From the sequence record PQ850596.1: 43,870 nucleotides of DNA. One strand, 5' to 3'. Below are positions 1,823-24,513 of the stretch, one piece after another. The translations under genes were made by a program, and so were the position numbers. The stretch is from Escherichia phage AnnaReinhart_Bas75. The notes beneath the pieces were generated by a model. The model made no database searches and was not told the origin of the DNA. It saw only the letters and a list, made by a program, of their open reading frames with translations. Positions within the stretch are counted from its first letter, which is position 1. Each line of letters begins with the position of its first letter.

Positions 1823-3304
1823 ATGTTAACTATGAACGGTCAGAATCAGGGTGTTAAGACAAAACACCGGGAATGGCTGCATCACTTCGATAAATGGCAG
1901 AAGGTACGCCACGCTCTTGAAGGCGACCTTATCCGCTATCTGCGCAACGTCGGGAAGAACGAGCCTGACCAGACCTACGCAGCACAGCGACAGGAAGAAT
2001 ACGAGAACGGCGCTATCTGCTACAATTTCACCAAACGCACGCTGGCGGGGATGACGGGGTCAGTGATGCGCAAAGACCCTGAGCAGATTATCCCGCCTGA
2101 ACTTGAGTACCTGTTGCACAACGCTGACGGTTCAGGTGTCGGGCTGTGGCAGCACGCGCAGGATACGCTGATGGAGATTAACTCGATAGGCCGTGGCGGG
2201 TTGCTGGTGGACGCCCCGGAAACAGCCGCAGCAACGGCGGCAGAGCAGAACGCGGGATTATTAAACCCGGTAATCGCATTCTATACCGCGGAGAACATTA
2301 TCAACTGGAGACTCACCCGCATCGGTTCAGTGAACCGCGTGACGATGGTTGTATTGCGTGAGGCATGGGAATACTCGGAACCAGGCGCTGAGTTTGAAAC
2401 AAAATTCGGCGAGCAATACCGCGTCCTTGACCTGATTGACGGTCGCTACCGCCAGCGCATCTACCGCTTCGATGCCGAAGGTGGCGCACAGGATGAAGTA
2501 ATCGAAATCTTCCCGGAACTCGGCGAACAGTTGCGCGGTAAAATCCCGTTCACGTTCATTGGCGCAAGCAACAACGACGCCACTATAGACGATGCGCCTT
2601 TACTGCCGTTAGCTGAGCTAAATATCGGTCATTTCCGCAACAGCGCAGACAATGAGGAGTCCAGCTTCGTTGTAGGCCAGCCTACTCTGTTCATCGCCCC
2701 AGGTGAGAACATGAGCATGGAGCAATGGAAAGAAGCCAACCCTCACGGTGTGCGCATGGGGTCCCGTTCAGGTCATAACATTGGTTACGGCGGCAATGCG
2801 TTTCTGGTTCAGGCAGGAGAGAACAACCTCGCCAAACAGAACATGCTGGATAAAGAGAATCAGGCCATCCAGATTGGCGCGCAGCTTATCACCCCGACGC
2901 AGCAAATCACCGCGGAATCGGCCCGCCTGCAACGCGGCGCCGACACGTCAGTCATGGCAACAATAGCACGTAATGTAAGCATGGCGTATACCGATGCGTT
3001 GCGCTGGGTTGCGGGTATGCTTGGGCTTAGTGAAGATACTGAGATTGAGTTCAAGCTGAATATGGAATTCTTCCTGCAACCTATGACAGCTCAGGACCGC
3101 GCTCAGTGGATGGCGGATATTAACGCTGGCCTGCTACCCGCCACCGCTTACTATGCTGCGTTGCGCAAGGCAGGTGTGACTGACTGGACAGATGAGGACA
3201 TTCAGAACGCTATTGAAGACGCACCTCTGCCGTTGGGTTCTGTTGCTCAGGTAGCGGGAGAGATTCCGCAGTCGGCGCAGCAACAGGACACCACTCAGCA
3301 GTAA
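1823..3304 (+). CDS. portal protein
   Basis: 493-aa ORF immediately after terL; acidic C-terminus; followed by a GNRA-loop hairpin. Assignment by size and gene order. Confidence 0.7.
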   Translation: MLTMNGQNQGVKTKHREWLHHFDKWQKVRHALEGDLIRYLRNVGKNEPDQTYAAQRQEEYENGAICYNFTKRTLAGMTGSVMRKDPEQIIPPELEYLLHNADGSGVGLWQHAQDTLMEINSIGRGGLLVDAPETAAATAAEQNAGLLNPVIAFYTAENIINWRLTRIGSVNRVTMVVLREAWEYSEPGAEFETKFGEQYRVLDLIDGRYRQRIYRFDAEGGAQDEVIEIFPELGEQLRGKIPFTFIGASNNDATIDDAPLLPLAELNIGHFRNSADNEESSFVVGQPTLFIAPGENMSMEQWKEANPHGVRMGSRSGHNIGYGGNAFLVQAGENNLAKQNMLDKENQAIQIGAQLITPTQQITAESARLQRGADTSVMATIARNVSMAYTDALRWVAGMLGLSEDTEIEFKLNMEFFLQPMTAQDRAQWMADINAGLLPATAYYAALRKAGVTDWTDEDIQNAIEDAPLPLGSVAQVAGEIPQSAQQQDTTQQ

Positions 3305-3340: not shown

Positions 3341-4417
3341 ATGCTATTAACTTTAGCGCCACAGGGTTTATCTATGAGCTTACTTACATCCCTAATCAGC
3401 CATCAGATATGGCTGCAACGCACCGCATCCGGTGAGGTGAAAGACCTCACGCCGTTCATTCAGGAGATAAGGGATGAAATCAAACGGCAGGTGCTGTTAT
3501 TCGGTGACGACGGTCGCAGCACTGCGCGACTGAATAAACTGTTACGCGACCTGGAAGAAGCACTAACCGGTATTACGGGTGACTGGCAAACAAAGCTAAC
3601 AGACGACCTTAAGGAACTGGCGGCGTACGAGGCTGAGTGGAACGTAAAGACACTGACCGCCAACGTAGACGCGGAATTTGTTACGCCTACCGCTGAGCAG
3701 GTATGGGCCGCTGCCGAGTTTCAACCATTATCATTGAGCGACAAGCCCGTTGATTTCACCAAGCTGATGTCTGGATGGGGCGAAACGGAAGTAGCACGTC
3801 TTGTAACTGGAGTTAAGATGGGCTTTGTGCAAGGTCAAACCACACGGCAGATTGTTAAGAATGTTGTTGGCGCTGGTGGACTAGCCGACATCTCAGAACG
3901 TAACGCGACTACGGTAATCCGCACCGCGCTGTCCCACGTATCCAACGAGGCCCGTAACGAGACGTACCGCCAGAACGACGACATCATCGAGAAGTACGAG
4001 TGGGTGTCAACGCTTGACAGCCGCACCAGTACGATTTGCAGGGTCAGAGACGGGATGACGTGGGAAATTGGTAAGGGGCCGATGCCCCCAGCCCATCCGA
4101 ACTGCCGGTCGTGCACGGCTCCGGTAATCAGTTCCGAGTTCGACTTCCTCGATAAAGGCGCAAAACGCGCGGCTAAAGGCGCGGAAGGTGGCACTCAGGT
4201 AAGCGCAGACACCACTTACTACGAGTTCCTTAAACAACAACCGGCGTGGTTTCAGGACCAGGCGCTCGGCCCGGTGCGAGGTAAGATTTTCCGTAACAGC
4301 GGTATATCGCCGGAAGAGTTTCGCGTAATATCTGTAGATGGTTTCGGGAATCCGCTCACGCTTAAGCAGATGGCGGAACTCGATAAACGTGTTGCTGATT
4401 ATCTGAAAGGGGAATAA
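3341..4417 (+). CDS. head morphogenesis / minor capsid protein (Mu gpF / SPP1 gp7-like)
   Basis: 358-aa ORF following portal, the conserved position of F-like head morphogenesis proteins; alternative start at ATG 3374. Family assignment from position and general sequence character only. Confidence 0.55.
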   Translation: MLLTLAPQGLSMSLLTSLISHQIWLQRTASGEVKDLTPFIQEIRDEIKRQVLLFGDDGRSTARLNKLLRDLEEALTGITGDWQTKLTDDLKELAAYEAEWNVKTLTANVDAEFVTPTAEQVWAAAEFQPLSLSDKPVDFTKLMSGWGETEVARLVTGVKMGFVQGQTTRQIVKNVVGAGGLADISERNATTVIRTALSHVSNEARNETYRQNDDIIEKYEWVSTLDSRTSTICRVRDGMTWEIGKGPMPPAHPNCRSCTAPVISSEFDFLDKGAKRAAKGAEGGTQVSADTTYYEFLKQQPAWFQDQALGPVRGKIFRNSGISPEEFRVISVDGFGNPLTLKQMAELDKRVADYLKGE

Positions 4418-4878
4418 TGATGGGCTTTTTCAAAGTAACTGACGTACCGTCTCGTCGCGTAGTCCAGTACGCCCGCGTGTCTGGCTCTGGCGAGAACGTG
4501 GTATTTATTGAGGACGAAAGTGTACTCGGTACACCGGTAGATGATATGCCGTTTGCAGATAAAACCGGTATTGCGTTGCCCGCCGCCGGTATGCTTTATG
4601 AAATTCCGTATCTGGCGGACGCTGGCGACGTGTATTTCTCTGTGCAACCAAAAGACGCTGAACTGGCCGACGGCAGCGCGACTATCACTGTCGAAGTTAA
4701 AGCAGGTGAAGCGCCGTATGCACTGACCTGGTACAAAGACGGTAAGGAAGTTGTCAACGCCCCGGAAGAGGCACTTTCCTTGACGGTTAACGCAGTGGGT
4801 GAATACTTCGTTAAAGTTACCGATGCTGATGGTGTAGAGGCTGTCAGTAAAGCTGCGAAGGTCACTAAGCCCGAATGA
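4417..4878 (+). CDS. Ig-like domain protein (possible capsid decoration protein)
   Basis: 153 aa; C-terminal segment TITVEVKAGEAPYALTWYKDGKEV...GEYFVKVTD resembles Ig-like (I-set/Big-type) domains; paralogous to 8190..8540. Confidence 0.5.
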   Translation: MMGFFKVTDVPSRRVVQYARVSGSGENVVFIEDESVLGTPVDDMPFADKTGIALPAAGMLYEIPYLADAGDVYFSVQPKDAELADGSATITVEVKAGEAPYALTWYKDGKEVVNAPEEALSLTVNAVGEYFVKVTDADGVEAVSKAAKVTKPE

Positions 4879-4881
4879 TAA

Positions 4882-4905
4882 AAGGCCCCATTAAGGGGCC
4901 TTAGT
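4882..4905. terminator. bidirectional rho-independent terminator AAGGCCCC-atta-GGGGCCTT
   Basis: 8-bp GC-rich stem flanked by A-run upstream and T-run downstream; lies between convergent genes 4417..4878 (+) and 4908..5111 (-). Confidence 0.7.
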
Positions 4906-4907
4906 TT

Positions 4908-5111
4908 TCAACGGAATCTTGTGTTTAAATCCTGCTCGTGGACGACCCTCAGAACAGTGTCATAATCCCCGTATCTTCCAGGTTCAAATATATCTAATGC
5001 CTTGTAAGCAGACATTGCGTCAGGGAAAACCTGCAGAACCTTTTTAACCCGGCACAAGTCACCGTCGAACTCTTCATCGAACTCTTGAACTACTTCGCAA
5101 ATTGCATACAT
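4908..5111 (-). CDS. hypothetical small acidic protein (67 aa), single-gene minus-strand insert
   Basis: ORF with AGGAGG RBS 8 nt before ATG, own early-type promoter (5139..5167) and shared terminator; opposite orientation to flanking structural genes. Confidence 0.6.
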   Translation of the reverse strand: MYAICEVVQEFDEEFDGDLCRVKKVLQVFPDAMSAYKALDIFEPGRYGDYDTVLRVVHEQDLNTRFR

Positions 5112-5138
5112 TTTTCACCTCCTGTTTAAGTTAACTGA

Positions 5139-5167
5139 ATAGTACCCTATTATATTGGGGTGTGCAA
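5139..5167 (-). promoter_or_regulatory. sigma70-like promoter TTGCAC-N17-TACTAT containing palindrome AATAG-N4-CTATT
   Basis: Read on minus strand: TTGCAC accccaatataataggg TACTAT, then AGGAGG RBS and ATG of 4908..5111. Near-identical to sites at 14262, 37025 and 38441. Confidence 0.6.
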
Positions 5168-5442
5168 ACTATTTATTTACGTATTCCAGTTATTCCACCG
5201 AATTGTAAATGTTGGAATAAACTATTCGAATAGTTGACTTTTCACTAAAAATATGATAAGCTCCACCTGAGCTTGTGAAATATGAACAAGCGACCGCGGC
5301 GCGGGCAGGTAACGGAGCGGGACGTAAGTCCTGAGTGTAGTTACGCTGACGCGTTCGGAAGGGCCATACTCTATTGCTTGTGTAAAAAGTAACAGGTTTA
5401 CTGAGATTACGCCGTTTCTATGTTTAAATGATAAGGACTAGC

Positions 5443-5468
5443 GCCCTGCTTTAAGGCAGGGCTTTACT
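5443..5468 (+). terminator. hairpin GCCCTGC-N-GCAGGGC followed by TTTACTT
   Basis: 7-bp stem with T-rich 3' flank, immediately upstream of the Rz RBS. Confidence 0.4.
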
Positions 5469-5486
5469 TATCGAGAAAGGAGAAAC

Positions 5487-5873
5487 ATGAATCTTAAAGC
5501 AACTGTCGTAGCAGGAGCATGTTTCATCATCCTGGTTTACGCACACGGCATCTACCAGTATCGCAGCGGATGGAACGAAGGCCGGGCTAATCTCGTTTCG
5601 CAGCAACAGCAGAAAGCACAGGCTGAGTTAGCGAAGAAAACACAACGGCAGCAGCAGGATGAATCGAAGGCCGCCGCCGCTGACAACGAAGGCAAGACGA
5701 AATCAGAGGTGATTACCCGTGAAGTCGTTAAGTACATTAAAACGCCTGGTCGCAGTGTGTGCGCTTTTGACCCTGAGCGCGTGCAGCTCAAGTCCCGCGC
5801 CGTCGCAAACGCCAACTCCATCCCCGGATACGACGATGATGCAGCCGCCGTGCAAACTGGCACCGCCAAGTAG
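5487..5873 (+). CDS. Rz: i-spanin (Rz-like inner membrane spanin)
   Basis: 128 aa; N-terminal transmembrane segment (VVAGACFIILVYAHGIY), then Gln/Ala/Lys-rich predicted coiled coil; contains an embedded out-of-frame lipoprotein ORF, the hallmark Rz/Rz1 arrangement. Confidence 0.6.
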   Translation: MNLKATVVAGACFIILVYAHGIYQYRSGWNEGRANLVSQQQQKAQAELAKKTQRQQQDESKAAAADNEGKTKSEVITREVVKYIKTPGRSVCAFDPERVQLKSRAVANANSIPGYDDDAAAVQTGTAK

Positions 5874-5982: not shown

Positions 5983-6064
5983 TTGCCTTGCATGTTGGAA
6001 TAATTTATTCTTGACATGTAAATCCGGGTGGCCCGGGTTCCAACGTCCAGGGGACATACTGACT

Positions 6065-6769
6065 ATGAATCGTTTTTTACGTTATCCGTTCCAGGAAGAA
6101 GCTGGGGCAGAAGATAAAGCTGGTGGCGGTGACGCGCCGAAAATGTTCACCGCTGAAGAAGTTCAGGCGCTGATTGAGAAAGAAGTTGCCGGGCTTAAGG
6201 CTAATCAGGAAGCATTGTTGGCGGAGAAGAAAGAAGCCGCTCGCAAAGCAAAAGAGGCCGAAGAAGAACGGCAGCGCGCGCACCAGGAGGCGTTAAAAGC
6301 CGCTGGTAAGATGGACGAGTTCGAAAAGACGATTCGTAGCCAGTATGACCCGGTGTTAGCCGAGAAAGACGGTCGCATCTCCAGAATGGCAGAGCGTATC
6401 CTCGGCAGCGAACGTAAAGCGGTGCTAGGCTCTTTCGCGGGTGACTTTATTACCCCGGAAGCAGTGGACATTCTTGCGCCGTTCGTTAAGACTGAGTTCG
6501 AAGGCGATGATGTGGTTACTAAGTTTGTTGGTGCAGACGGTAACGTAATCACGACTGACCCGGAACAGTTCCGCAAATACCTGCGCGAACACAAGGCGTT
6601 TTCGCATTTGATTAAAGCAAATGCAGCTTCCGGCGGCGGGGCTTCCGGTAGCAAAGGCGGCGGGGCCGCACCAGCGTTTAAAGACATGAGTGAAGCGGAG
6701 CGTATCGCTCTGTACGAATCGAACCCTGCCGAATTTGAACGGCAACTTAAAGCCCTGAGGAAAAAATAA
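6065..6769 (+). CDS. scaffolding protein
   Basis: Highly charged, Ala/Glu/Lys-rich coiled-coil-like protein immediately upstream of the major capsid gene; ORF listed from TTG 6011, ATG at 6065 preferred. Confidence 0.6.
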   Translation: MNRFLRYPFQEEAGAEDKAGGGDAPKMFTAEEVQALIEKEVAGLKANQEALLAEKKEAARKAKEAEEERQRAHQEALKAAGKMDEFEKTIRSQYDPVLAEKDGRISRMAERILGSERKAVLGSFAGDFITPEAVDILAPFVKTEFEGDDVVTKFVGADGNVITTDPEQFRKYLREHKAFSHLIKANAASGGGASGSKGGGAAPAFKDMSEAERIALYESNPAEFERQLKALRKK

Positions 6770-7818
6770 TGGCAATTACTACTATCGGCGACATCGTAAC
6801 TGGTAAAGAATCGGTAATCCTGTCCTACATGACAGAGGACCCGGTAGAGAAAACCGCGTTCTTCCAGTCCGGTATCCTTACCTCGACTCCGTATGCCGCC
6901 GCTATCGCAAACGGCCCGTCCAACAAAGCGGTCCTGCCGTACTGGAAAGCTATTGATACCTCTATCGAGCCGAACTACTCGAACGACGTATATCAGGACG
7001 TCGCCACCCCGCGTAACGTGCAAACCGGTGAGATGGATGTTCGCGTAGCTTACCTGAACGAAGGTTTTGGTCAGGCTGACCTGACGGTAGAACTGACCAG
7101 CCAGAATCCGCTGCAATCCGTGGCTTCCCGTCTGGATAACTTCTGGCAGCGTCAGGCACAACGCCGTCTTATTGCTACCGCGCTCGGTCTGTACAATGAC
7201 AACGTAGCGGCTACCGATGCATACCACGAGCAGAATGACATGGTGATCGACGTTTCCGCTACTATGGGCTTCGACTCCGGTGCGTTCATCGACGCTACCC
7301 AGACTATGGGTGACGCGCTGATGGGTAACGGCGGTGAAGTGCTGGGGGCTATCGCGATGCACAGCTTCGTTTATGCGCAGGCTCGTAAGCAGCAGCTTAT
7401 CGACTTCATCCGTGATGCTGACAACAACACCATGTTCGCCACCTACCAGGGCTACCGTGTGATTGTTGACGACAGCATGACCGTAGTCGGTACTGGCGGC
7501 AGCCGTAAGTTCATCTCCATCATCTTCGGCAACGGCGCTATCGGTTACGGTGAAGGTTCTCCGTCAAACCCGCTGGAATACGAGCGCGAAGCGTCTCGCG
7601 GCAACGGCGGTGGCGTCGAAACCCTGTGGACCCGTAAGACCTGGTTGCTGCATCCGTTTGGTTACAGCTTCACCAGCGCAGTAATCACTGGCAACGGCAC
7701 CGAGACTATCGCCCGCTCTGCTTCATGGCAGGACCTGGCGAACGCTTCCAACTGGAACCGCGTTGTTGAGCGTAAGCATGTACCGATTGCCTTCCTGGTA
7801 ACTGGTGTCGGGGCTTAA
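6769..7818 (+). CDS. major capsid protein
   Basis: 349-aa ORF after scaffold, start overlapping scaffold stop; followed by a strong UUCG-loop hairpin terminator, as expected for the most abundant virion protein. Confidence 0.75.
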   Translation: MAITTIGDIVTGKESVILSYMTEDPVEKTAFFQSGILTSTPYAAAIANGPSNKAVLPYWKAIDTSIEPNYSNDVYQDVATPRNVQTGEMDVRVAYLNEGFGQADLTVELTSQNPLQSVASRLDNFWQRQAQRRLIATALGLYNDNVAATDAYHEQNDMVIDVSATMGFDSGAFIDATQTMGDALMGNGGEVLGAIAMHSFVYAQARKQQLIDFIRDADNNTMFATYQGYRVIVDDSMTVVGTGGSRKFISIIFGNGAIGYGEGSPSNPLEYEREASRGNGGGVETLWTRKTWLLHPFGYSFTSAVITGNGTETIARSASWQDLANASNWNRVVERKHVPIAFLVTGVGA

Positions 7819-7833
7819 GGTTAAGATATAATC

Positions 7834-7860
7834 GAGAGGGACTTCGGTCCCTCTTTTCAT
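7834..7860 (+). terminator. hairpin GAGAGGGAC-ttcg-GTCCCTCT followed by TTTCATTT (terminator/attenuator after capsid gene)
   Basis: 9-bp stem with one mismatch, UUCG tetraloop, T-rich tail. Confidence 0.6.
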
Positions 7861-7877
7861 TTACTAAGAGGTAAATT

Positions 7878-8177
7878 ATGGCTAAGACCGGAAAAGGCTT
7901 GCCTCGCAGCCTTCAGAATGTCGACTTCGGCGACTTTGACATCCCAGTAACGCCGGCTACTACCGGCGTAGTTGGTGGGGTTAAAAAGTCAGCTACTGTA
8001 GCTGCCCCCGCGGCCATTACCGCTGCCGCCGGGTCGCAGTCCGCTGCGGACCCGACTAAGCCCGAGTTCGATGCCCTTGTAGCCGAGTACAACAAACTTC
8101 GAACTGATGTAACCGCGCTGCGCACTACCGTAGCAAATCTGTTGACTGCGCTTAAAAATGCAGGAACTGTAAGCTAA
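7878..8177 (+). CDS. hypothetical structural protein (99 aa, Ala-rich)
   Basis: AAGAGG RBS before ATG; located between capsid and Ig-like genes. Confidence 0.55.
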   Translation: MAKTGKGLPRSLQNVDFGDFDIPVTPATTGVVGGVKKSATVAAPAAITAAAGSQSAADPTKPEFDALVAEYNKLRTDVTALRTTVANLLTALKNAGTVS

Positions 8178-8189
8178 AGGAGCTTAAAA

Positions 8190-8540
8190 ATGGTTGATGT
8201 AATCAAACGTCGTATTACTGGTGTTTCTGATGATTCTCCTGCCGATGGTCAGGTTGAAATCGATATGGCGAATATCTCGCCCGCATCTTTTTCTACCGCA
8301 CTTGCCGCTACCACTACCAAGTCTACGGGGCAGACGATGACTCTTACCGTAGCCGTAACTGGCGGTCTGGCCCCGTACACATACCAGTGGTACAAAGATA
8401 ACAACGCTATCCCAGGCGCTACCGCCGCCACCTACGAGAAAACTTCGCTCGCTACTACCGATTCCGGTACGTATAAAGTGGTTGTCCACGATGTATATGG
8501 TAATATTATCTCCAGCAGCACCGTAGCAACTGTATCTTAA
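8190..8540 (+). CDS. Ig-like domain protein (possible capsid decoration protein)
   Basis: 116 aa; motif MTLTVAVTGGLAPYTYQWYKDNNAI...GTYKVVVHD matches Ig-like domain signature and parallels 4417..4878. Confidence 0.55.
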   Translation: MVDVIKRRITGVSDDSPADGQVEIDMANISPASFSTALAATTTKSTGQTMTLTVAVTGGLAPYTYQWYKDNNAIPGATAATYEKTSLATTDSGTYKVVVHDVYGNIISSSTVATVS

Positions 8541-8545
8541 TACCG

Positions 8546-8561
8546 CGGCCCTTCGGGGCCG
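8546..8561 (+). other. stable hairpin CGGCCC-ttcg-GGGCCG (no T-tract)
   Basis: Perfect 6-bp GC stem with UUCG tetraloop directly after the stop of 8190..8540. Confidence 0.5.
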
Positions 8562-8576
8562 TAATAAGGAAAGGTC

Positions 8577-8756
8577 ATGGCAGATAATTATGTAATCCGC
8601 GAAAAGTACACCCACGTTGATGTTGTTGACGGTCAGGTTATGCCCGTTCGCGGTGTTGTAGAAGCGGATGAACTGGTAGCGGTTCAACCGGACAACGAAG
8701 AAGCGCACAACAACGGCGGTGGCACTAAGCGTCGCCGCCGTAAGTCAGAGGAATAA
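8577..8756 (+). CDS. hypothetical protein (59 aa; below the ORF-track size cutoff)
   Basis: ATG preceded by AAGGAAAGG; clean ORF ending just before the next gene; basic C-terminus GGGTKRRRRK. Confidence 0.45.
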   Translation: MADNYVIREKYTHVDVVDGQVMPVRGVVEADELVAVQPDNEEAHNNGGGTKRRRRKSEE

Positions 8757-8759
8757 TTT

Positions 8760-9272
8760 ATGCCGCTAATCGTGGAAACTGGGGCAATCGTCCCGAATGC
8801 CGACAGTTACATTAGTCTGGCTGACGCCCGCGCGTTAGCGGCTAATTATGGCCTTGAGCTACCGGAAGACGATACCGCCGCGGAGGTGGCCTTGCGTAAC
8901 GGCGCCACTTATGTCGGGCTTGCGGAACCGCAGATGTGCGGTCGCCGGGTATCCGCCGAACAGTCTCTGGCGTACCCACGTACGGGAACAACACTGAACG
9001 GCTTCACTGTAGCGGATAATGATATTCCGTCGCAGTTAATCCGGGCGCAGGTAATCGCCGCTGTTACATATGGCGCAGGAACTGATGTTCGGGCTAACTC
9101 TGATGGGCGTTCCGTGCAGACTGAGCGCGTAGAAGGCGCGGTGACCGTGACATACTTCAACAACGGCAACAGTGGCGCTACGACCGCGATTACCGCTGCT
9201 GACGACGCTTTACGCCCGTTATTGTGTGGCGGTCTTAACAATGGTTTCTCGTTTAACGTGTACCGGGGTTAA
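8760..9272 (+). CDS. putative head-tail connector/adaptor protein
   Basis: 170 aa, in the head-completion position; N-terminus (IVPNADSYISLADARALA) resembles gp6-like adaptor proteins. Assignment is tentative. Confidence 0.45.
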   Translation: MPLIVETGAIVPNADSYISLADARALAANYGLELPEDDTAAEVALRNGATYVGLAEPQMCGRRVSAEQSLAYPRTGTTLNGFTVADNDIPSQLIRAQVIAAVTYGAGTDVRANSDGRSVQTERVEGAVTVTYFNNGNSGATTAITAADDALRPLLCGGLNNGFSFNVYRG

Positions 9273-9274
9273 AA

Positions 9275-9889
9275 ATGGCGAAGACTAAATCAGAGATATT
9301 CACGCTAATCGGTTCCGAGCTACCGGACAACACGACCGGACTTATTACGCCTGCGAAGTTGCGCGGGGTATTAACCCAGATGGCTGACTCACCTATTTAC
9401 GCCACTCCGGGTGTTAAAGAGGTTGAAGTTCTCCGCGCTGCGTCGACAGTAGCGCAAGCGCCTACCGCAGTAGATACGGCGTTGCAGTTAACTTTCGGCG
9501 CTGCGCAGGGTAGTGCATCCGACCCGGTAATGATTAATGCCGCTGGCCTGGTTACATTTAACACCGCTGGCAACTACGCCGTTCGCATCAAGTTACAGGC
9601 GGGGCGCACAGGGGCCAGCGGCACGCCCATCCTGTTATCGCGCATTCTTCTTAACGGAGCTCAATACGGCTCACCAGCTGCCACGAAACTGGTAAGCGCC
9701 GATGTAACAATCCCGATTGAATCCCGTGTAGTGATTAACCCAACCGCCGGGCAAACATTCGCCGTTCAGATTATGCGAGATAGCGCCGGGACTAACTTCG
9801 GAGGCGTATACCCGCAGGTGGCTACTGTAACTGCATGGGGCACGGCACCGTTAGCGTTACTGGTTATTTCGAGACTGGAGGCTGCGTAA
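9275..9889 (+). CDS. hypothetical structural protein (204 aa)
   Basis: Tightly packed in structural operon with translational coupling to neighbours. Confidence 0.5.
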   Translation: MAKTKSEIFTLIGSELPDNTTGLITPAKLRGVLTQMADSPIYATPGVKEVEVLRAASTVAQAPTAVDTALQLTFGAAQGSASDPVMINAAGLVTFNTAGNYAVRIKLQAGRTGASGTPILLSRILLNGAQYGSPAATKLVSADVTIPIESRVVINPTAGQTFAVQIMRDSAGTNFGGVYPQVATVTAWGTAPLALLVISRLEAA

Positions 9890-19762: not shown

Positions 19763-22320
19763 TCCTGCACTACACGCGAAACGCTGATGGCGCTTTCAAC
19801 CGTACAAAACACGTCGGGATGCCGATGGAGTTTGTCGTTAACCGTATCCCGGACGGCGTTCCGGTACGCGTCTATCTTGGCGAGATTGGTGATGATACTG
19901 ATGTTACAGACGACTTCGACGCGCTCAAAGACGAGGACGCCGTGTACCACATTATTGAGGGCGCTGGCGGCGGCATTGGCGACGCCATCGGGAGTGTATT
20001 CAGTTTCATCCTTAAGCCAATCGCCAAATTGTTCGGGCTAAACACAGCGGCTAACGCTAATTATTCCGCTACCAACAATCAGGCTACGTCGCCTAACAAC
20101 AGTCTCACCGACCGCTCAAACAAGCCACGACCTTATGAGCGTTCCTATGATATCTGCGGGACAGTGCAGACCATCCCCAATGACCTGATGCAGACATATA
20201 AGGTGTTTAATGCCGCGGGTGCGCTTATTGAATATGCGTACTATGACGCCGGTCGAGGGTATCTGCATATTGAGGAAGACGGTGTAACTGAGGCAGATAC
20301 CCGAATCAGCGAGATAACTGGCTCGTCGGTGACGGTGTATTCTCCTTACACTTCGCCGAATAACACCAGCACACCACAATTGCATATCGGCGACCCTATA
20401 GACCAGAAATTGTACGTTACATTTAAAAACGCCGATGTCGATGGCGCTGTTCTTCCCGCCCCTAATGATATCGCTATAGACGTGCAGGACTACACTGTCC
20501 AGCGGCAGGGAACAACCGGCGTTGTGGTAGGCGATGACGCTGGTTTCGATGAGTTTTTGGCGGTCGGGGACCTGGCATACTTCGATAACGTATATGCAGA
20601 TACAACCCCAGGGTCTTTGGGTAATGAGGTTAACCTGGACGGGAGGTACACGGTTCTTTCGGTTAGTGAAACCACCCTTATTGTGGACGTCAGTACAAAT
20701 CAATCAGTATGGAACCAGCTAGGGGCGTCTGTGTGGTTTATAGGTGAAGAGGGTAACCATCTTATAGGCCCGGCGGACACTTACGCGGCTTCTCTCTCTG
20801 AATGGGCGTACATCACCCGCGGTACTGTCGACCGTGTTGTAGCCAATGTCGCCGCCAGCAACGGCATGTATAAATACAACGGCGACTATAACCGCGCTTC
20901 AGTGACAGTCGAACTGCAATACCAGATGGTAGATGAATTGAAACAGCCTGTAGGTGACATATTTACCGTACGAGGAACCGTAACAGGCCGGAACACGGAT
21001 TACACAGGGATTACTCTTTACGGAAGTTTACCAACTGCTTCCAGATTCCGCGCCCGTATGCGTCGTGTTTCGGACACCGATAAAGATTTTGAAGGTACTG
21101 TTAGCGACGAGGTTACTTTCACTAATCTGTATGGGCAGTCGCTGGACACAACCCCCCACTACGGCAACCGTACTACCGTACACTGCGCCCGTAAACAAAC
21201 CCCACGTGCAGCCGAGGTGTCCGAACCGGAACTGCGCATGATTGCGACCGAGATGTGCTACAAATACTTAGGTAACGGCGTATTCGATACGGTAATGACA
21301 CCGAACACTCAGGCCGTGCAGTCGCTAATCAGGCTGGCGCGTGACCCTGTGGTGGGTAATCTGGACCTGACAACGGCAAACATGGACAAGTTACTTGCTG
21401 TGCAGGAAGAGATTGAGTCATATTTCGGAAGTGAATTAGCGGGGCAGTTCTGCTACACGTTCGACGACTACGACACCACAATGCAGGACATTGTTCAGAC
21501 TATAGCTGAAGCCGTGTTCTGTACTGCGTACCGTAAAGGCGCGGATATTATGTTGCGCTTCGACCGTCCTGTCGCGGGGCCTGAAATGGTGTTCACCCAC
21601 CGCAGTAAGACGACCGGTACGGAGAAATGGACCCGCACATTCAACGATTCGACTACCTACGATAGCCTTTCGTTCTCGTACATCGACCCGGATACTAACG
21701 TACAGGAAACTATTTATATCCCGGAAGAACTCGGTGCAAACACTGAGGAATACGAATCGAAGGGCGTGCGCAACTACCAGCAGGCGTACTGGCTTGCGTG
21801 GCGTCGATATCAGCGCAATGCGTTAAGTAAAGTTGTCGTAGAGTTCGAAGCTACCGAAGAAGGCGCTCTAGCTACTCCCGGCGGCGTAATCAGCGTGGTT
21901 AAAGGCTCCCGCATCGCGCCGCAGGATGGTTATGTTGTCGCCGTTAATGGGCTTACGCTTACGCTGTCGCAGCCGGTTACGTTTACTCCTGGTGATGACC
22001 ATTCCATCATTCTTAAGAAGCGCGACGGCTCTGTGCAGAGTATTTCTGTTATCAAAGGAAGCCACGACCGCGAAGTGATTATGCTCTCCGCGCCGGAGGA
22101 GGCAATCTACACGGGGAATAGTGCGCTAAAAACTGAGTTTTCATTCGGCAACGAAGCAAGGCATAATGCTCAGAAGATAGTTGTTTCTTCAATCGACCCC
22201 GGCGACGACCGCACGGTCAAGATTACGGGCTACAACTATGATGACGGATTCTATAAATACGACGGCGTCGCGCCATACGGCAGCGGTTTCTCCGACGGAT
22301 TCAGCAATGGTTTTAATTAA
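19753..22320 (+). CDS. tail tip / central fiber protein (gpJ-like host specificity protein)
   Basis: 855-aa ORF after K-like gene; listed ORF opens at TTG 19753, alternative ATG at 19819. Confidence 0.55.
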   Translation: MAIILHYTRNADGAFNRTKHVGMPMEFVVNRIPDGVPVRVYLGEIGDDTDVTDDFDALKDEDAVYHIIEGAGGGIGDAIGSVFSFILKPIAKLFGLNTAANANYSATNNQATSPNNSLTDRSNKPRPYERSYDICGTVQTIPNDLMQTYKVFNAAGALIEYAYYDAGRGYLHIEEDGVTEADTRISEITGSSVTVYSPYTSPNNTSTPQLHIGDPIDQKLYVTFKNADVDGAVLPAPNDIAIDVQDYTVQRQGTTGVVVGDDAGFDEFLAVGDLAYFDNVYADTTPGSLGNEVNLDGRYTVLSVSETTLIVDVSTNQSVWNQLGASVWFIGEEGNHLIGPADTYAASLSEWAYITRGTVDRVVANVAASNGMYKYNGDYNRASVTVELQYQMVDELKQPVGDIFTVRGTVTGRNTDYTGITLYGSLPTASRFRARMRRVSDTDKDFEGTVSDEVTFTNLYGQSLDTTPHYGNRTTVHCARKQTPRAAEVSEPELRMIATEMCYKYLGNGVFDTVMTPNTQAVQSLIRLARDPVVGNLDLTTANMDKLLAVQEEIESYFGSELAGQFCYTFDDYDTTMQDIVQTIAEAVFCTAYRKGADIMLRFDRPVAGPEMVFTHRSKTTGTEKWTRTFNDSTTYDSLSFSYIDPDTNVQETIYIPEELGANTEEYESKGVRNYQQAYWLAWRRYQRNALSKVVVEFEATEEGALATPGGVISVVKGSRIAPQDGYVVAVNGLTLTLSQPVTFTPGDDHSIILKKRDGSVQSISVIKGSHDREVIMLSAPEEAIYTGNSALKTEFSFGNEARHNAQKIVVSSIDPGDDRTVKITGYNYDDGFYKYDGVAPYGSGFSDGFSNGFN

Positions 22321-22332
22321 AGAGGACTCTAT

Positions 22333-24513
22333 ATGTCAAGCGGATGCGGTGACGTTTTAAGCCTGGTGGATTTACAAACCGCCAAGAAACACCAGATTTT
22401 CGAGGCCGAGGTTATCACCGGTAAAGCTGGCGGTGTAGCTACGGGTGCTGATATTGATTACGCAACTAATCAGGTTACGGGACAGACACAGAAGACGTTG
22501 CCAGCCGTGTTGCGTGACGCCGGGTTCAGACCTGCGCCATTCACATTCGAAACAGGTGGGACTTTGGGCGTTAACGACGCTGACCTGGCGGTGTTGTGGC
22601 CAGGGCCATCAGGCGACGGCAACTATTATGCATGGAAAGGTGCCCTGCCAAAAACCATCCCGGCATCCTCAACGCCAGCATCTACGGGCGGAGTAGGCCA
22701 GACCGCATGGGTTGCCGTTAGTGAAGCTGCATTGCGCCGTGATTTGGCCCTAAGCACTGGCGCAGGGTTAGTTGGGACAACATCCGGCAGGACCGTACAG
22801 GCAGAGTTTGACTACCGCAAGACTCAAGCAGCAAAAACAGAGATAAACATACTTGACTACCTTCCAGCTAACGTGATCGCAGCTCTAAACGATGTTAACG
22901 CGTCAAAAGCACTAGGAAGCGTAAGGACATACATTGAGCAGGCTTTAGCGGCAGCAACTAGCGAGAATATCGGTACTGGGGTTACTTTACGTTTCCCGGC
23001 TGGGTTCTTTTGGCTTGATTCTACTCTTAACCTTCCAAAAAGGACGCGTATTGTTGGGGTCTACCCAGAAACATACTTTATGGCTCTCCCTGACTTTACT
23101 GGCACTAACGTAATTGCCGGTTCCACAGGACCCGCTATAGTCGCTATTGATAACACAGGACAAGACCCGTTTTATATTGAAGGTTTCCAGATAAACGCAG
23201 ATGGTTCCCAGCCGAATGTGGTTGGGCTGCACATTGGCGGCTGCCGTAATTCCGTCGTCCGTCGGATATCTGTATCTGGAACCTTCGATGCTGCTGTTGT
23301 TATCCACCCTAAAAACGCAACATCTGGAGACGTGGAGAACCTGGAATTAAGCCACGTATGGACATTAGGCGGTGGGCTTGTGCTCAGGACTAATACAGAT
23401 ATCGACCGTGGAAATTTAACAGGCCTGTCATTCCGGGATTGTATGTTTTTCAGCACAATCGGCAACAACCCTTCATGGGCGACATCTGGCAACCCTAGTA
23501 TCAGGTTCTCCTGCCATGTAGACCGACAGATTTTTGCATGTACATTCGACCGTGTAGGATGGGCGAGTCGCGCAACATACGCCATCTATTCAGAAAGCCT
23601 AGCCGGAAATAGTGCATCTGATGTCAAGGGCTTCCGCGATATTCATTTTACAGATTTCCACGGAGAAGCCCACAATGCCGATGGGTCATTAACAGCGGAC
23701 TGTACTTTTGCCCTTCTTGCGAATATGCGTAACAGTACATTTACTAATATCCAACGCTCCGGCGCTGTGACTCGCGGCGGCATTATCATGGATGGGTGCG
23801 AATACGTAACATTCAACTCAGTATCATTTGCGGACCCTAATATCACAACAGGAACAACGACACCTTGTTGCGTATACCAGAACTCCACCAACAGATTTAA
23901 TAGATTTATTAACTGTGACTTAACAGATGCAACCGGGAGCATGTTTGATTTAGCCGGTTGGACCGTGTCATCCAGTGTAATGTATTATTTTAAGGGTCTT
24001 TTTTGGGACGATAGTGGGACAAGTACCTGGGAGAGTGAACAAATGTCTTCAAAACCATTTGTTCTTTTTAAAAGGTCTGCGCTTAACGCCAATAACGGTT
24101 CTGCTTACCCGCAGGAATCAGGCGTAACTATGGCTACTTCTGGTGATAATCTACAGGTTACCTTTGCACGAGACGCTACCACAAAAACATTCACAATACC
24201 AATCACAACTACAAACGCTGTTTTCAACAACCACGACCGTGTTTATGTCCTATTCCGTCATCAGTTCACTAGCTATGGCACTGGCACAGTTGTAAAAATA
24301 GGGCTTGGAACATCCTATGTGACTATCTCACCTCAGACAGGGAACGATTATTTTGCGGCTATTAGCTTAGCACGTAGCCAGGCTACTAGTTTTAATATAC
24401 AAGTAACCTATAGCGGGGCCTCAGCTGACTGCGGAATATTAATTAGGGATTTAATTATTTCTGACAGGATGCCGTGGGTGCCGAACTTCACCAAAGCATT
24501 ACTTTGCGATTAA
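22333..24513 (+). CDS. tailspike / receptor-binding protein with probable beta-helix polysaccharide depolymerase domain
   Basis: 726 aa; N-terminal segment typical of tail-fibre anchor domains; central/C-terminal region shows repetitive Gly/Asn/Ser/Thr-rich pattern of beta-helix enzymes; last structural gene; GC drops in the 3' part. Confidence 0.55.
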   Translation: MSSGCGDVLSLVDLQTAKKHQIFEAEVITGKAGGVATGADIDYATNQVTGQTQKTLPAVLRDAGFRPAPFTFETGGTLGVNDADLAVLWPGPSGDGNYYAWKGALPKTIPASSTPASTGGVGQTAWVAVSEAALRRDLALSTGAGLVGTTSGRTVQAEFDYRKTQAAKTEINILDYLPANVIAALNDVNASKALGSVRTYIEQALAAATSENIGTGVTLRFPAGFFWLDSTLNLPKRTRIVGVYPETYFMALPDFTGTNVIAGSTGPAIVAIDNTGQDPFYIEGFQINADGSQPNVVGLHIGGCRNSVVRRISVSGTFDAAVVIHPKNATSGDVENLELSHVWTLGGGLVLRTNTDIDRGNLTGLSFRDCMFFSTIGNNPSWATSGNPSIRFSCHVDRQIFACTFDRVGWASRATYAIYSESLAGNSASDVKGFRDIHFTDFHGEAHNADGSLTADCTFALLANMRNSTFTNIQRSGAVTRGGIIMDGCEYVTFNSVSFADPNITTGTTTPCCVYQNSTNRFNRFINCDLTDATGSMFDLAGWTVSSSVMYYFKGLFWDDSGTSTWESEQMSSKPFVLFKRSALNANNGSAYPQESGVTMATSGDNLQVTFARDATTKTFTIPITTTNAVFNNHDRVYVLFRHQFTSYGTGTVVKIGLGTSYVTISPQTGNDYFAAISLARSQATSFNIQVTYSGASADCGILIRDLIISDRMPWVPNFTKALLCD

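Follow-up and report, generated by a model that had tools for sequence, protein, structure and literature searches.

Two small genes in the head module of Escherichia phage AnnaReinhart_Bas75 (PQ850596.1), here called A and B, probably encode two different accessory proteins, each with an attachment segment of its own at the N-terminus and then a single Ig-like sandwich. The two would be of separate origin, with B belonging to a capsid gene cassette and A to the portal–MuF block, a reading to which we assign a probability of about 0.6. The window, which is the whole stretch of 43,870 nucleotides analysed, derives from a Kagunavirus (Guernseyvirinae), a siphophage and coliphage with 99% identity to Bas70. 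The A/B pair is real but ordinary, and is already annotated in near-identical genomes.

Two genes and their shared Ig-like domain

Gene A (153 aa) and gene B (116 aa) were found where the first-pass annotation, made from the letters alone, had placed them, and each had a Shine-Dalgarno-like sequence upstream. Their assignment to the head module was also correct, as portal (1823–3304), MuF, scaffold (6011–6769), major capsid protein (MCP) and adaptor (8760–9272) genes lie around them. The features of the region are as follows.

3341–4417, + strand: MuF or SPP1 gp7-like minor head protein (Pfam Phage_Mu_F, E 2.6e-12; phrog_241, E 4.9e-155)
4417–4878, + strand: gene A, N-terminal domain and one C-terminal Ig-like domain (phrog_3945)
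4417–4641, + strand: A residues 1–75, predicted beta-rich N-terminal domain, presumed anchor (model and profile searches)
4642–4875, + strand: A residues 76–153, divergent I-set-like Ig domain (model, Foldseek and hhalign)
4882–4902, no strand assigned: GC-rich hairpin, with A on one side and the converging minus-strand ORF 4908–5111 on the other (sequence)
6769–7818, + strand: MCP, SPP1 gp13-like, first cassette gene (phrog_247, E 2e-117)
7834–7855, + strand: terminator-like hairpin directly 3′ of the MCP gene and 5′ of the head fibre gene and B (sequence)
7878–8177, + strand: "head fibre" protein of 99 aa, encoded between MCP and B (phrog_4366, E 1.3e-41)
8190–8540, + strand: gene B, short conserved N-terminal segment and one Ig-like domain (phrog_4069)
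8190–8291, + strand: B residues 1–34, N-terminal segment predicted to be unstructured, presumed capsid-anchoring peptide (model and conservation)
8292–8537, + strand: B residues 35–116, Ig-like domain of a widespread phage type (PDB sequence matches, hhalign and Foldseek)
8577–8756, + strand: 59-aa ORF, phrog_4451, last cassette gene (PHROG match and comparative genomics)

The A protein was 100% identical to a Bas76 protein and the B protein 100% identical to a Bas70 protein, both annotated as "Hoc-like head decoration protein". A was found in 488 phage records, and both gene families are present in about 480 Guernseyvirinae genomes. Labelling of the two varies between database records, which also use tail protein, fibritin or neck whiskers. 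Each matched a PHROG over its full length, A matching phrog_3945 (E 8.5e-86, residues 2–153 on profile positions 1–152 of 152) and B matching phrog_4069 (E 5e-58, residues 1–116 on positions 1–116 of 116); the "Hoc-like head decoration" label of these two families is an annotation. Antisense ORFs overlapping A and B, including one of 174 aa at 8184–8708, had no family matches and were treated as spurious. A fusion of the head fibre with B by read-through or frameshift was considered, the two being in the same frame and 12 nt apart in the window. It was rejected because B has its own AAGGAG, 7 nt upstream of its ATG, and because the frame relation differs in SE2 and SP-031.

The Ig-like motif that had been reported as common to the two ORFs was read in both translations. 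The B sequence (QTMTLTVAVTGGLAPYTYQWYKD...SGTYKVVVHD) agrees with it throughout, and that of A (SATITVEVKAGEAPYALTWYKD...VGEYFVKVTD) agrees at all positions but the first, with S for T. BLASTP aligned A with B at 41% identity over 54 aa (E 6e-8), and hhalign of the two family alignments gave a probability of 96% (E 2e-9), the similarity being confined to the Ig domain. When six-frame pieces of the window were searched with the Ig profile of each family, the sole match was the other protein (E 6.5e-10 and 6.4e-7). With the next matches at E >1, this search revealed no further Ig domain on the tail tube protein or elsewhere, and the window thus contains exactly two Ig copies.

B passed the Pfam Ig_3 cutoff (30.8 bits, cutoff 30) and also matched SprB (28.5 bits, cutoff 28), whereas A fell below every Pfam threshold (best scores 19.7 for Ig_3 and 23.9 for BiPBP_C). 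The Ig membership of A was established through profile comparison, with B (96% probability) and with T5 pb10 (93%). AlphaFold predicted a beta-sandwich for both (pLDDT about 70–85), with 72–85 for A residues 76–153 and block means of about 57–81 for B residues about 45–113. Foldseek matched the A domain to JAM, CD22 and the Moo19 and N4 decoration proteins, and the B domain to N4, Moo19, pb10 and Hoc. The top matches of both were Ig-superfamily structures with a probability of about 1, but with E values of only 1e-4 to 1e-2. Judged from the PHROG matches, profile links and models, both proteins end in one Ig-like beta-sandwich domain, in agreement with the first-pass annotation. In the core of such domains, the Trp lies in the WYK motif, and the Tyr in G-x-Y-x-V stands in place of the Y-x-C tyrosine corner. 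Alignments of 21 sequences showed W105 and Y130 of A and W67 and Y95 of B as invariant core residues. Both proteins are cysteine-free, and the canonical disulfide pair is therefore absent.

Gene B and the capsid cassette

The phages SE2, SP-031 and AH01 possess a window-type MCP (89–90% identity) together with the head fibre, B and the 59-aa ORF. In the Hafnia/Serratia relatives TS33, Tsm2 and Smarc3, the last three genes are all missing, an absence that was checked over the whole genomes of TS33 and Smarc3. The MCP of these relatives is 26% identical to that of the window, a similarity that was not significant in a pooled six-frame search and reached E 0.002 in a single pairwise comparison. 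Despite the divergent MCP, the flanking genes are 46–83% identical. The head fibre was missing wherever B was missing, and the N-terminal segment of B was seen only in genomes with the window-type MCP. MCP, head fibre, B and 59-aa ORF are inherited together as a cassette, an observation that is new here.

The two MCP types fall in one remote-homology PHROG, phrog_247, and the window MCP matched PDB 4an5/6r3a with E about 1e-42. A simple insertion of 27 aa as the cause of the longer MCP was rejected: TS33, Tsm2 and Smarc3 have a short MCP that is no deletion variant but comes from another, remotely related lineage (Pfam Gp13-like; PDB 8xb6). The N-terminal 22 aa of the head fibre protein were 100% identical to Ent3 gp11, and residues past 22 were not aligned by tblastn.

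Since the cassette genes are missing where the capsid gene is divergent, while A is kept, this pattern supports B as an accessory of the capsid lattice. Alternatively, the co-inheritance could reflect mere adjacency of the genes at a recombination breakpoint, without physical interaction. The first-pass annotation had described both proteins as capsid decoration. For B this now has comparative support from its co-inheritance with the MCP type, whereas for A it goes back to annotation transfer. Most likely, B would dock by its conserved N-terminal peptide on the SPP1 gp13-like capsid lattice or on the head fibre, and its Ig domain would face the solvent. Ten of the first 12 residues of B were invariant in 21 sequences (M1–R8, G11 and V12), and the other two were at least 90% conserved.

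The N-terminal domain and position of gene A

The N-terminal parts of A (75 aa) and B (about 34 aa) showed no similarity to each other by BLASTP or hhalign. Residues 1–75 of A were modelled as beta-rich at low confidence (pLDDT <50) and residues 1–34 of B likewise had pLDDT <50, so that the binding mode of either segment cannot be read from the models. The N-terminal half of A is more conserved than its Ig half (84% versus 76% mean pairwise identity). A search of residues 1–75 against 1.8 billion representative proteins returned 12 matches, 8 of them A-type (full-length, truncated or chimeric), and it detected no informative new architecture with this domain. Large matches (P0248 with cadherin repeats, P0250 and P0252) were dismissed as repeat or low-complexity artefacts, and P0251 appears to be a chimeric gene call in which sequence of portal, MuF and A is joined. 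A paralogue was found locally in TS33, where the ORF at 22028–22597 carries the N-terminal module of A with another C-terminal domain (phrog_18016). By these searches, the N-terminal domain of A is restricted to this phage group.

Gene A was kept in SE2, SP-031, AH01, TS33, Tsm2 and Smarc3, always directly after MuF, and this gene order was conserved in every relative examined. In the window the MuF stop codon overlaps the A start (TAATG), and the hairpin at 4882–4902 marks the end of the gene run terminase–portal–MuF–A. The N-terminal profile of A scored 122.8 bits in TS33, equal to SE2 (126) and AH01 (120) despite the different MCP. Where the MCP type differs, the portal, MuF, neck and tail genes are 61–80% identical. 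On this sequence evidence, the anchor of A tracks the portal/MuF block. We suggest that its N-terminal domain is a lineage-specific module, unchanged across capsid protein types. Because of this constancy, A probably attaches to a particle feature that is itself conserved, on the capsid or at the portal/neck. Such a feature could be one common to both MCP types, which belong to the same phrog_247.

It is possible, if doubtful, that A is attached to the portal/neck or tail like a whisker or collar, and that only B sits on the shell. The conservation of the anchor whatever the MCP type, its association with the portal, MuF, neck and tail genes and the overlap of the A start with the MuF stop in all relatives examined are consistent with such a site, although a distant homology still links the two MCP types. 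Also against it, A precedes the scaffold and MCP genes and is not grouped with neck and tail genes; an equivalent place is taken by the gene for T5 pb10, which is proven to decorate hexamer centres. The Ig domain of A weakly matched 9occ, a "putative neck whiskers protein gp24". Many records name A a tail, fibritin or neck-whisker protein, but these labels, like the Hoc-like one, were all transferred from similarity of the Ig domain and are uninformative on the location of A.

More tentatively, A and B might represent two separately exchangeable display systems. The cassette of MCP, head fibre, B and 59-aa ORF would be swapped as a unit, and an MCP-independent A anchor on the portal/neck would bear different distal domains (Ig, or phrog_18016 in the TS33 paralogue).

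Function, origin and known systems

The presence of A and B in the virion, their attachment sites and their function are what we infer from these patterns. Under the preferred reading of two different accessory proteins, their Ig domains would belong to a promiscuous phage Ig family that also occurs in T5 pb10, T4 Hoc and the N4 and Moo19 decoration proteins. By analogy with Hoc and pb10, the exposed Ig domains may provide weak, non-essential adhesion to surface glycans of the host envelope or mucus and/or a modest stabilisation of the particle. Guernseyvirinae were called structurally uncharacterised in a 2026 paper (PMC13243795). No virion proteomics, mass spectrometry or cryo-EM localisation of A or B was found for Guernseyvirinae in the full-text literature, and the fBC-Eco01 and BASEL papers contain predicted annotations at most for the two proteins. 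Nor did the literature yield an experiment on mucus or surface binding in this group.

We regard it as unlikely that A and B are mainly capsid stabilisers of a cement- or plug-like kind, with Ig domains that have no adhesive role. T5 pb10, the closest solved relative of the B Ig domain, guards T5 against genome release in extreme conditions (PMC5292684), but it contacts the shell through its capsid-binding domain and its Ig domain is solvent-exposed. TS33, Tsm2 and Smarc3 get by without B and the head fibre, though their MCP is also different. A monomeric single-Ig protein with a 34-aa anchor would also be expected to make a poor inter-capsomer cement.

A and B had been called paralogous proteins in the first-pass annotation, arising by duplication or by independent acquisition. 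This holds for the homologous Ig domain and not for the unrelated N-terminal parts, so that by sequence the homology is at the domain level only. The B Ig domain had an hhalign score of 95 against T5 pb10 and of 57 against A, and it was also nearer to phrog_2973, phrog_3995 and phrog_158 than to A (39 bits). An Ig tree (neighbour-joining on about 80 residues, without support values) grouped B with domains from unrelated phages at 35–45% identity and placed A on a separate long branch, 19–32% identical to the B-type domains. Since the N-termini are unrelated and the B Ig domain is closer to T5 pb10 than to A, a recent duplication is not supported. Most likely, this lineage gained the two Ig domains, or recombined them, separately and not through duplication of one gene. 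Duplication of one decoration gene within the lineage, with the same mode of capsid-lattice decoration for both copies, is improbable: the common domain with its very similar core motif, the Hoc-like label of both PHROGs and the tie of the B family as closest outside family for the A Ig domain (30.0 versus 30.5 bits) would fit it, but A occurs without B in the Hafnia/Serratia clade and each of the two genes is part of a different inheritance block.

The display of Ig-like domains by phage particles has long been recognised and is widespread, and these results have little consequence beyond correct annotation. Kagunaviruses are small, tractable coliphages represented in the BASEL collection. 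The comparative pattern predicts a dependence on the SPP1-like capsid protein for B and the head fibre, and none for A. The Hafnia/Serratia variants lacking B could serve as natural controls for the role of a single-Ig accessory protein in adsorption, mucus adherence and stability.

T5 pb10 resembles A and B in being small (160–164 aa) and in having an N-terminal part for attachment and, after it, a single C-terminal Ig-like domain. The former binds the capsid and is alpha-helical, and the Ig domain is exposed (PMC5292684). A differs in its predicted beta-rich domain of 75 aa and B in its 34-aa segment, and the T5 MCP differs from the SPP1 gp13-like MCP of this phage. The B Ig domain matched pb10 in PDB 8zvi_a (phmmer, E 4.5e-14) and 5lxk_A (E about 1e-14 to 1e-13); sequence matches to 9ncf_S and 9c2d_S were also found. 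Against AKFV33 pb10 it gave an hhalign E of 2.9e-16, with 43% identity over 86 aa. The A Ig domain is a more distant homologue of pb10 (hhalign, E 4e-7). In the hhalign comparisons of both proteins with AKFV33 pb10 the Ig domain alone aligned, the N-terminal parts showing no similarity. In T5-like phages the pb10 gene lies between portal and protease/MCP, and A lies between portal–MuF and scaffold–MCP; T5-like phages thus offer a precedent for a decoration protein encoded upstream of the MCP. A was nevertheless rejected as a pb10 ortholog despite the same size, layout and gene position, as the N-terminal domains do not align.

The PHROG labels of A and B derive from Hoc, a non-essential capsid accessory of T4 and RB49 (PDB 3shs) with outward-facing Ig-like domains, an arrangement that A and B would share. 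T4 Hoc has three tandem Ig-like domains, with a capsid-binding domain at the C-terminus, and is a monomer at the centre of MCP hexamers. A and B differ in having one Ig domain each, at the C-terminus, and an N-terminal non-Ig part. Foldseek superposed the B Ig domain on Hoc with an rmsd of 2.2 Å over 69 columns (28% identity); the sequence match of B to RB49 Hoc was not significant (E 0.48).

For both Ig domains, the best structural or sequence matches included the Ig-like decoration proteins of N4 (9e99, 9lbz) and Moo19 (9d7z) and Sf14 gp20 (9c2d). These proteins are larger and multi-domain and sit on T=9 or Schitoviridae capsids, unlike the small single-Ig A and B. The Sf14 capsid bears two different decoration proteins, one Ig-like and the other a beta-tulip trimer (PMC11821841). 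It is a precedent for two decorations on one capsid, although only half of its pair is Ig-like. In SPP1, the homologue of the window MCP is gp13 (E about 1e-42). SPP1 gp12 is a collagen-like trimer without an Ig domain. It is a small non-essential protein at hexamer centres (PMC5292684), and its counterpart here, if any, would in concept be the 99-aa head fibre protein and neither A nor B.

Two Ig-like genes in the head module

The first-pass annotation had described two paralogous Ig-like proteins at 4417..4878 and 8190..8540, and both ORFs (A and B) lay exactly at these coordinates.

Positions of A, B and neighbouring hairpins in the window
4417-4878, plus strand: A, 153 aa
4882-4902: GC-rich hairpin 3′ of A, common to A and a converging minus-strand ORF
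7834-7855: terminator-like hairpin directly 3′ of the major capsid protein (MCP) gene
8190-8540, plus strand: B, 116 aa

The stop codon of the SPP1 gp7-like minor head protein gene (MuF) overlapped the ATG of A (TAATG, 4415-4419). B was the second gene past the MCP gene, with AAGGAG 7 nt 5′ of its start ATG. Antisense ORFs across A and B had no matches in a family search.

The region shared 99.1% identity with Escherichia phage Bas70, and many Kagunavirus genomes matched it at 91-97%. A was identical (100%) to a Bas76 protein and B (100%) to a Bas70 protein, both annotated "Hoc-like head decoration protein", and their full-length PHROG matches (phrog_3945 for A, phrog_4069 for B) were labelled Hoc-like head decoration. 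In the GenBank record of Salmonella phage Ent3 (HG934470) the labels at the two positions are "putative head decoration protein" and "putative Hoc protein". Given these records the pair was already in the databases; the observation is correct and the feature ordinary and already annotated. Phage records with A numbered 488, those with full-length B about 479. We found predicted annotations only, and no experimental localisation of A or B, in the literature on Guernseyvirinae, a large group that a 2026 paper (PMC13243795) calls structurally uncharacterised.

The block shared by A and B was real. A 89-139 aligned with B 51-104 at 41% identity (BLASTP, E 6e-8), and the two families matched with a probability of 96% (hhalign, E 2e-9, 21-sequence alignment per family). 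The motif quoted for the block fitted B at all positions and A at all but the first. In searches of six-frame pieces of the whole window, the Ig-domain profile of either protein recovered only its partner (E 6.5e-10 and 6.4e-7); no further match scored under E 1. As A and B did not align outside the block, they are paralogous in the Ig domain and not as whole proteins.

In a Pfam search, B exceeded the thresholds of Ig_3 (30.8 bits, cutoff 30) and SprB repeat (28.5, cutoff 28), and A fell under all of them (BiPBP_C 23.9, Ig_3 19.7, Big_2 15.2). The family alignments served as input for AlphaFold models, which were poor overall (mean pLDDT 57 for A and 60 for B). They contained C-terminal beta-sandwiches at A 76-153 and B ~45-113 (pLDDT about 70-85), preceded by regions with pLDDT <50 (A 1-75, B 1-43), and Foldseek matched them to Ig-superfamily domains, as the first-pass annotation had predicted. 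The top PDB matches of B were the Ig-like capsid decoration proteins of N4 (9e99, 9lbz) and Moo19 (9d7z), followed by T5 pb10 (5lxk) and RB49 Hoc (3shs); the Moo19 and N4 proteins were also among the top matches of A. E-values were modest for both (1e-4 to 0.4), in keeping with a domain of 80 residues. By sequence, the B domain matched T5 pb10 (E 4.5e-14) and the multi-Ig phage proteins 9ncf_S and 9c2d_S, and A matched pb10 and multi-Ig phage proteins weakly. A and B almost certainly each carry a C-terminal Ig-like domain, homologous at the domain level.

Origin of the two proteins

Duplication and independent acquisition had both been proposed. B was closer to pb10 than to A (hhalign scores: B against pb10 95, B against A 57, A against pb10 46), and at their N-termini the three proteins A, B and pb10 were unrelated to one another. 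The B domain scored 77.6, 62.3 and 49.9 bits against three other PHROG families and 39.1 against the A family, while the A domain scored equally low against the B family (30.0) and one other family (30.5 bits). An alignment of 20 Ig domains combined those of this group with others from T5-like, T4-like, Nonagvirus and Autographiviridae phages. In it, B-type domains were 27-45% identical to the foreign phage domains and only 19-32% identical to A-type domains, which formed a separate long branch in a tree without support values. Ig domains are known to shuffle among phages. The tree and the different anchors fit such shuffling and argue against a recent duplication; we put the probability that A and B do not derive from one at roughly 0.85, and favour separate origins over duplication.

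Exchange of B together with the capsid protein

The window layout was common to Salmonella SE2 (Jerseyvirus), FSL SP-031 (Cornellvirus) and Pantoea AH01: their MCP genes, with products 89-90% identical to the window MCP, preceded head fibre, B and a 59-aa ORF. At the MCP-to-59-aa-ORF block alone, Hafnia TS33 and Serratia Tsm2 and Smarc3 departed from this layout.

Replaced block
6769-8756: block in the window
L006 24183-25407: counterpart in TS33
L007 8902-10101: counterpart in Tsm2
L009 8918-10120: counterpart in Smarc3

All flanking genes were kept at 46-83% identity: terminase, portal (74-76%), MuF (61-68%), A (52-62%), spanin, the N-terminal two-thirds of scaffold, adaptor, neck proteins and tail tube protein. 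Only the N-terminal 160-208 residues of the scaffold protein aligned, so one breakpoint probably lies inside that gene. The substitute consisted of a distantly related MCP and a single unrelated ORF of 56-65 aa. Neither TS33 nor Smarc3 had the head fibre, B or the 59-aa ORF anywhere in its complete genome (searched at E up to 1), and Tsm2 lacked all three too. The substitute MCP was 26% identical to the window MCP (not significant in six-frame BLAST; one pairwise comparison gave E 0.002) and belonged to another sub-lineage, matching Pfam Gp13-like (E 1e-104) and PDB 8xb6. The window MCP (6769-7818) matched SPP1 gp13 structures (E about 1e-42) and, with the cutoff relaxed to E 10, still no Pfam-A model; evidently Gp13-like misses the SPP1-like branch despite its name.

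Judged by joint presence and loss with MCP type, 6769-8756 behaves as a single exchangeable cassette; specific recognition of this capsid lattice by the head fibre and B would lead one to expect such a pattern. This inheritance is the sole, indirect evidence here on the location of B, probably an accessory protein that its N-terminal peptide holds on the exterior of the SPP1-like capsid. The capsid-decoration label is reasonable for B and stays unproven for A.

The head-fibre gene (7878-8177, 99 aa) was intact in the window. In Bas70 (L001 7878-8081) a 1-nt C-run deletion (window about 8003-8008) splits it, leaving an annotated 67-aa protein upstream of a 100% identical B; either a sequencing error or a genuine loss could account for the split. 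The first 22 residues of the head-fibre protein (7878-7943) were 100% identical to Ent3 gp11 (124 aa, L010 5118-5489), and nothing aligned past them (tblastn), a pattern suggesting that distal parts can be exchanged behind a conserved anchoring peptide at the N-terminus. Further downstream (9275-9889), between the Ad1 adaptor and head-closure genes, lay a conserved 204-aa protein (phrog_3614; 97% identical in Bas70, 62-76% in other genera compared). Its weak sub-threshold matches to the BclA C-terminal domain and podophage fibre protein gp80 make it a candidate neck or collar fibre.

The anchor and location of A

A was present in all compared relatives, including those without B, always immediately 3′ of MuF, an order also seen in a divergent metagenomic relative. 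Although TS33 has a different MCP, the profile score of the A N-terminal domain there (122.8 bits) was level with those in SE2 (126) and AH01 (120). This domain was more conserved than the Ig domain (mean pairwise identity 84% against 76%). It was confined to this phage group, with A-type sequences making up 8 of 12 matches among 1.8 billion representative proteins. Directly 3′ of the A orthologue, TS33 has a second ORF of 189 aa (L006 22028-22597) whose first 86 residues are homologous to this domain (hhalign 94%, E 8e-8), the rest being a different domain (phrog_18016). This reuse and the MCP-independent conservation make it look like a reusable anchor independent of MCP type. Its target may be either a conserved feature of the capsid or the portal/neck region.

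The slot 3′ of A varied between relatives. In the window (4879-5486) it held a minus-strand 67-aa ORF (4908-5111, weak phrog_27256 match) and an AT-rich non-coding stretch of about 370 nt; elsewhere it held an 855-nt minus-strand gene (SP-031), three minus-strand genes (AH01) or the A paralogue (TS33). A spanin pair (5487-5873 and 5719/5839-5982) lay between A and the scaffold gene, inside the head module; the o-spanin had a lipoprotein signal and overlapped the i-spanin gene. This placement was kept in SE2, Tsm2, Smarc3 and AH01, and in Tsm2 and Smarc3 the annotated endolysin gene was upstream of terminase, away from the spanins. On the other side of A, Jerseyviruses had a minus-strand 651-nt gene between portal and MuF (SE2, L003 4128-4778, 'amidase'; Ent3, L010 86-736, hypothetical protein), which the window lacked (portal end 3304, MuF start 3341). 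The AH01 MuF homologue (L008 5139-6998) had 619 aa against 358 aa in the window; the window protein aligned over only 248 aa, meaning that AH01 has an insertion or extension. The related record fEg-Eco06 has an intein annotated in MuF.

A mucus-adherence model exists for Hoc. Solely by analogy with Hoc and pb10 (PMC5292684; PMC11821841), the Ig domains of A and B may, tentatively, provide weak glycan adhesion and possibly some stabilisation. We lean towards A being a virion surface protein; if it is on the virion, the odds of shell rather than neck are roughly even. The pb10 gene of T5 lies between those for portal and protease/MCP, so gene position alone is compatible with a shell location for A.
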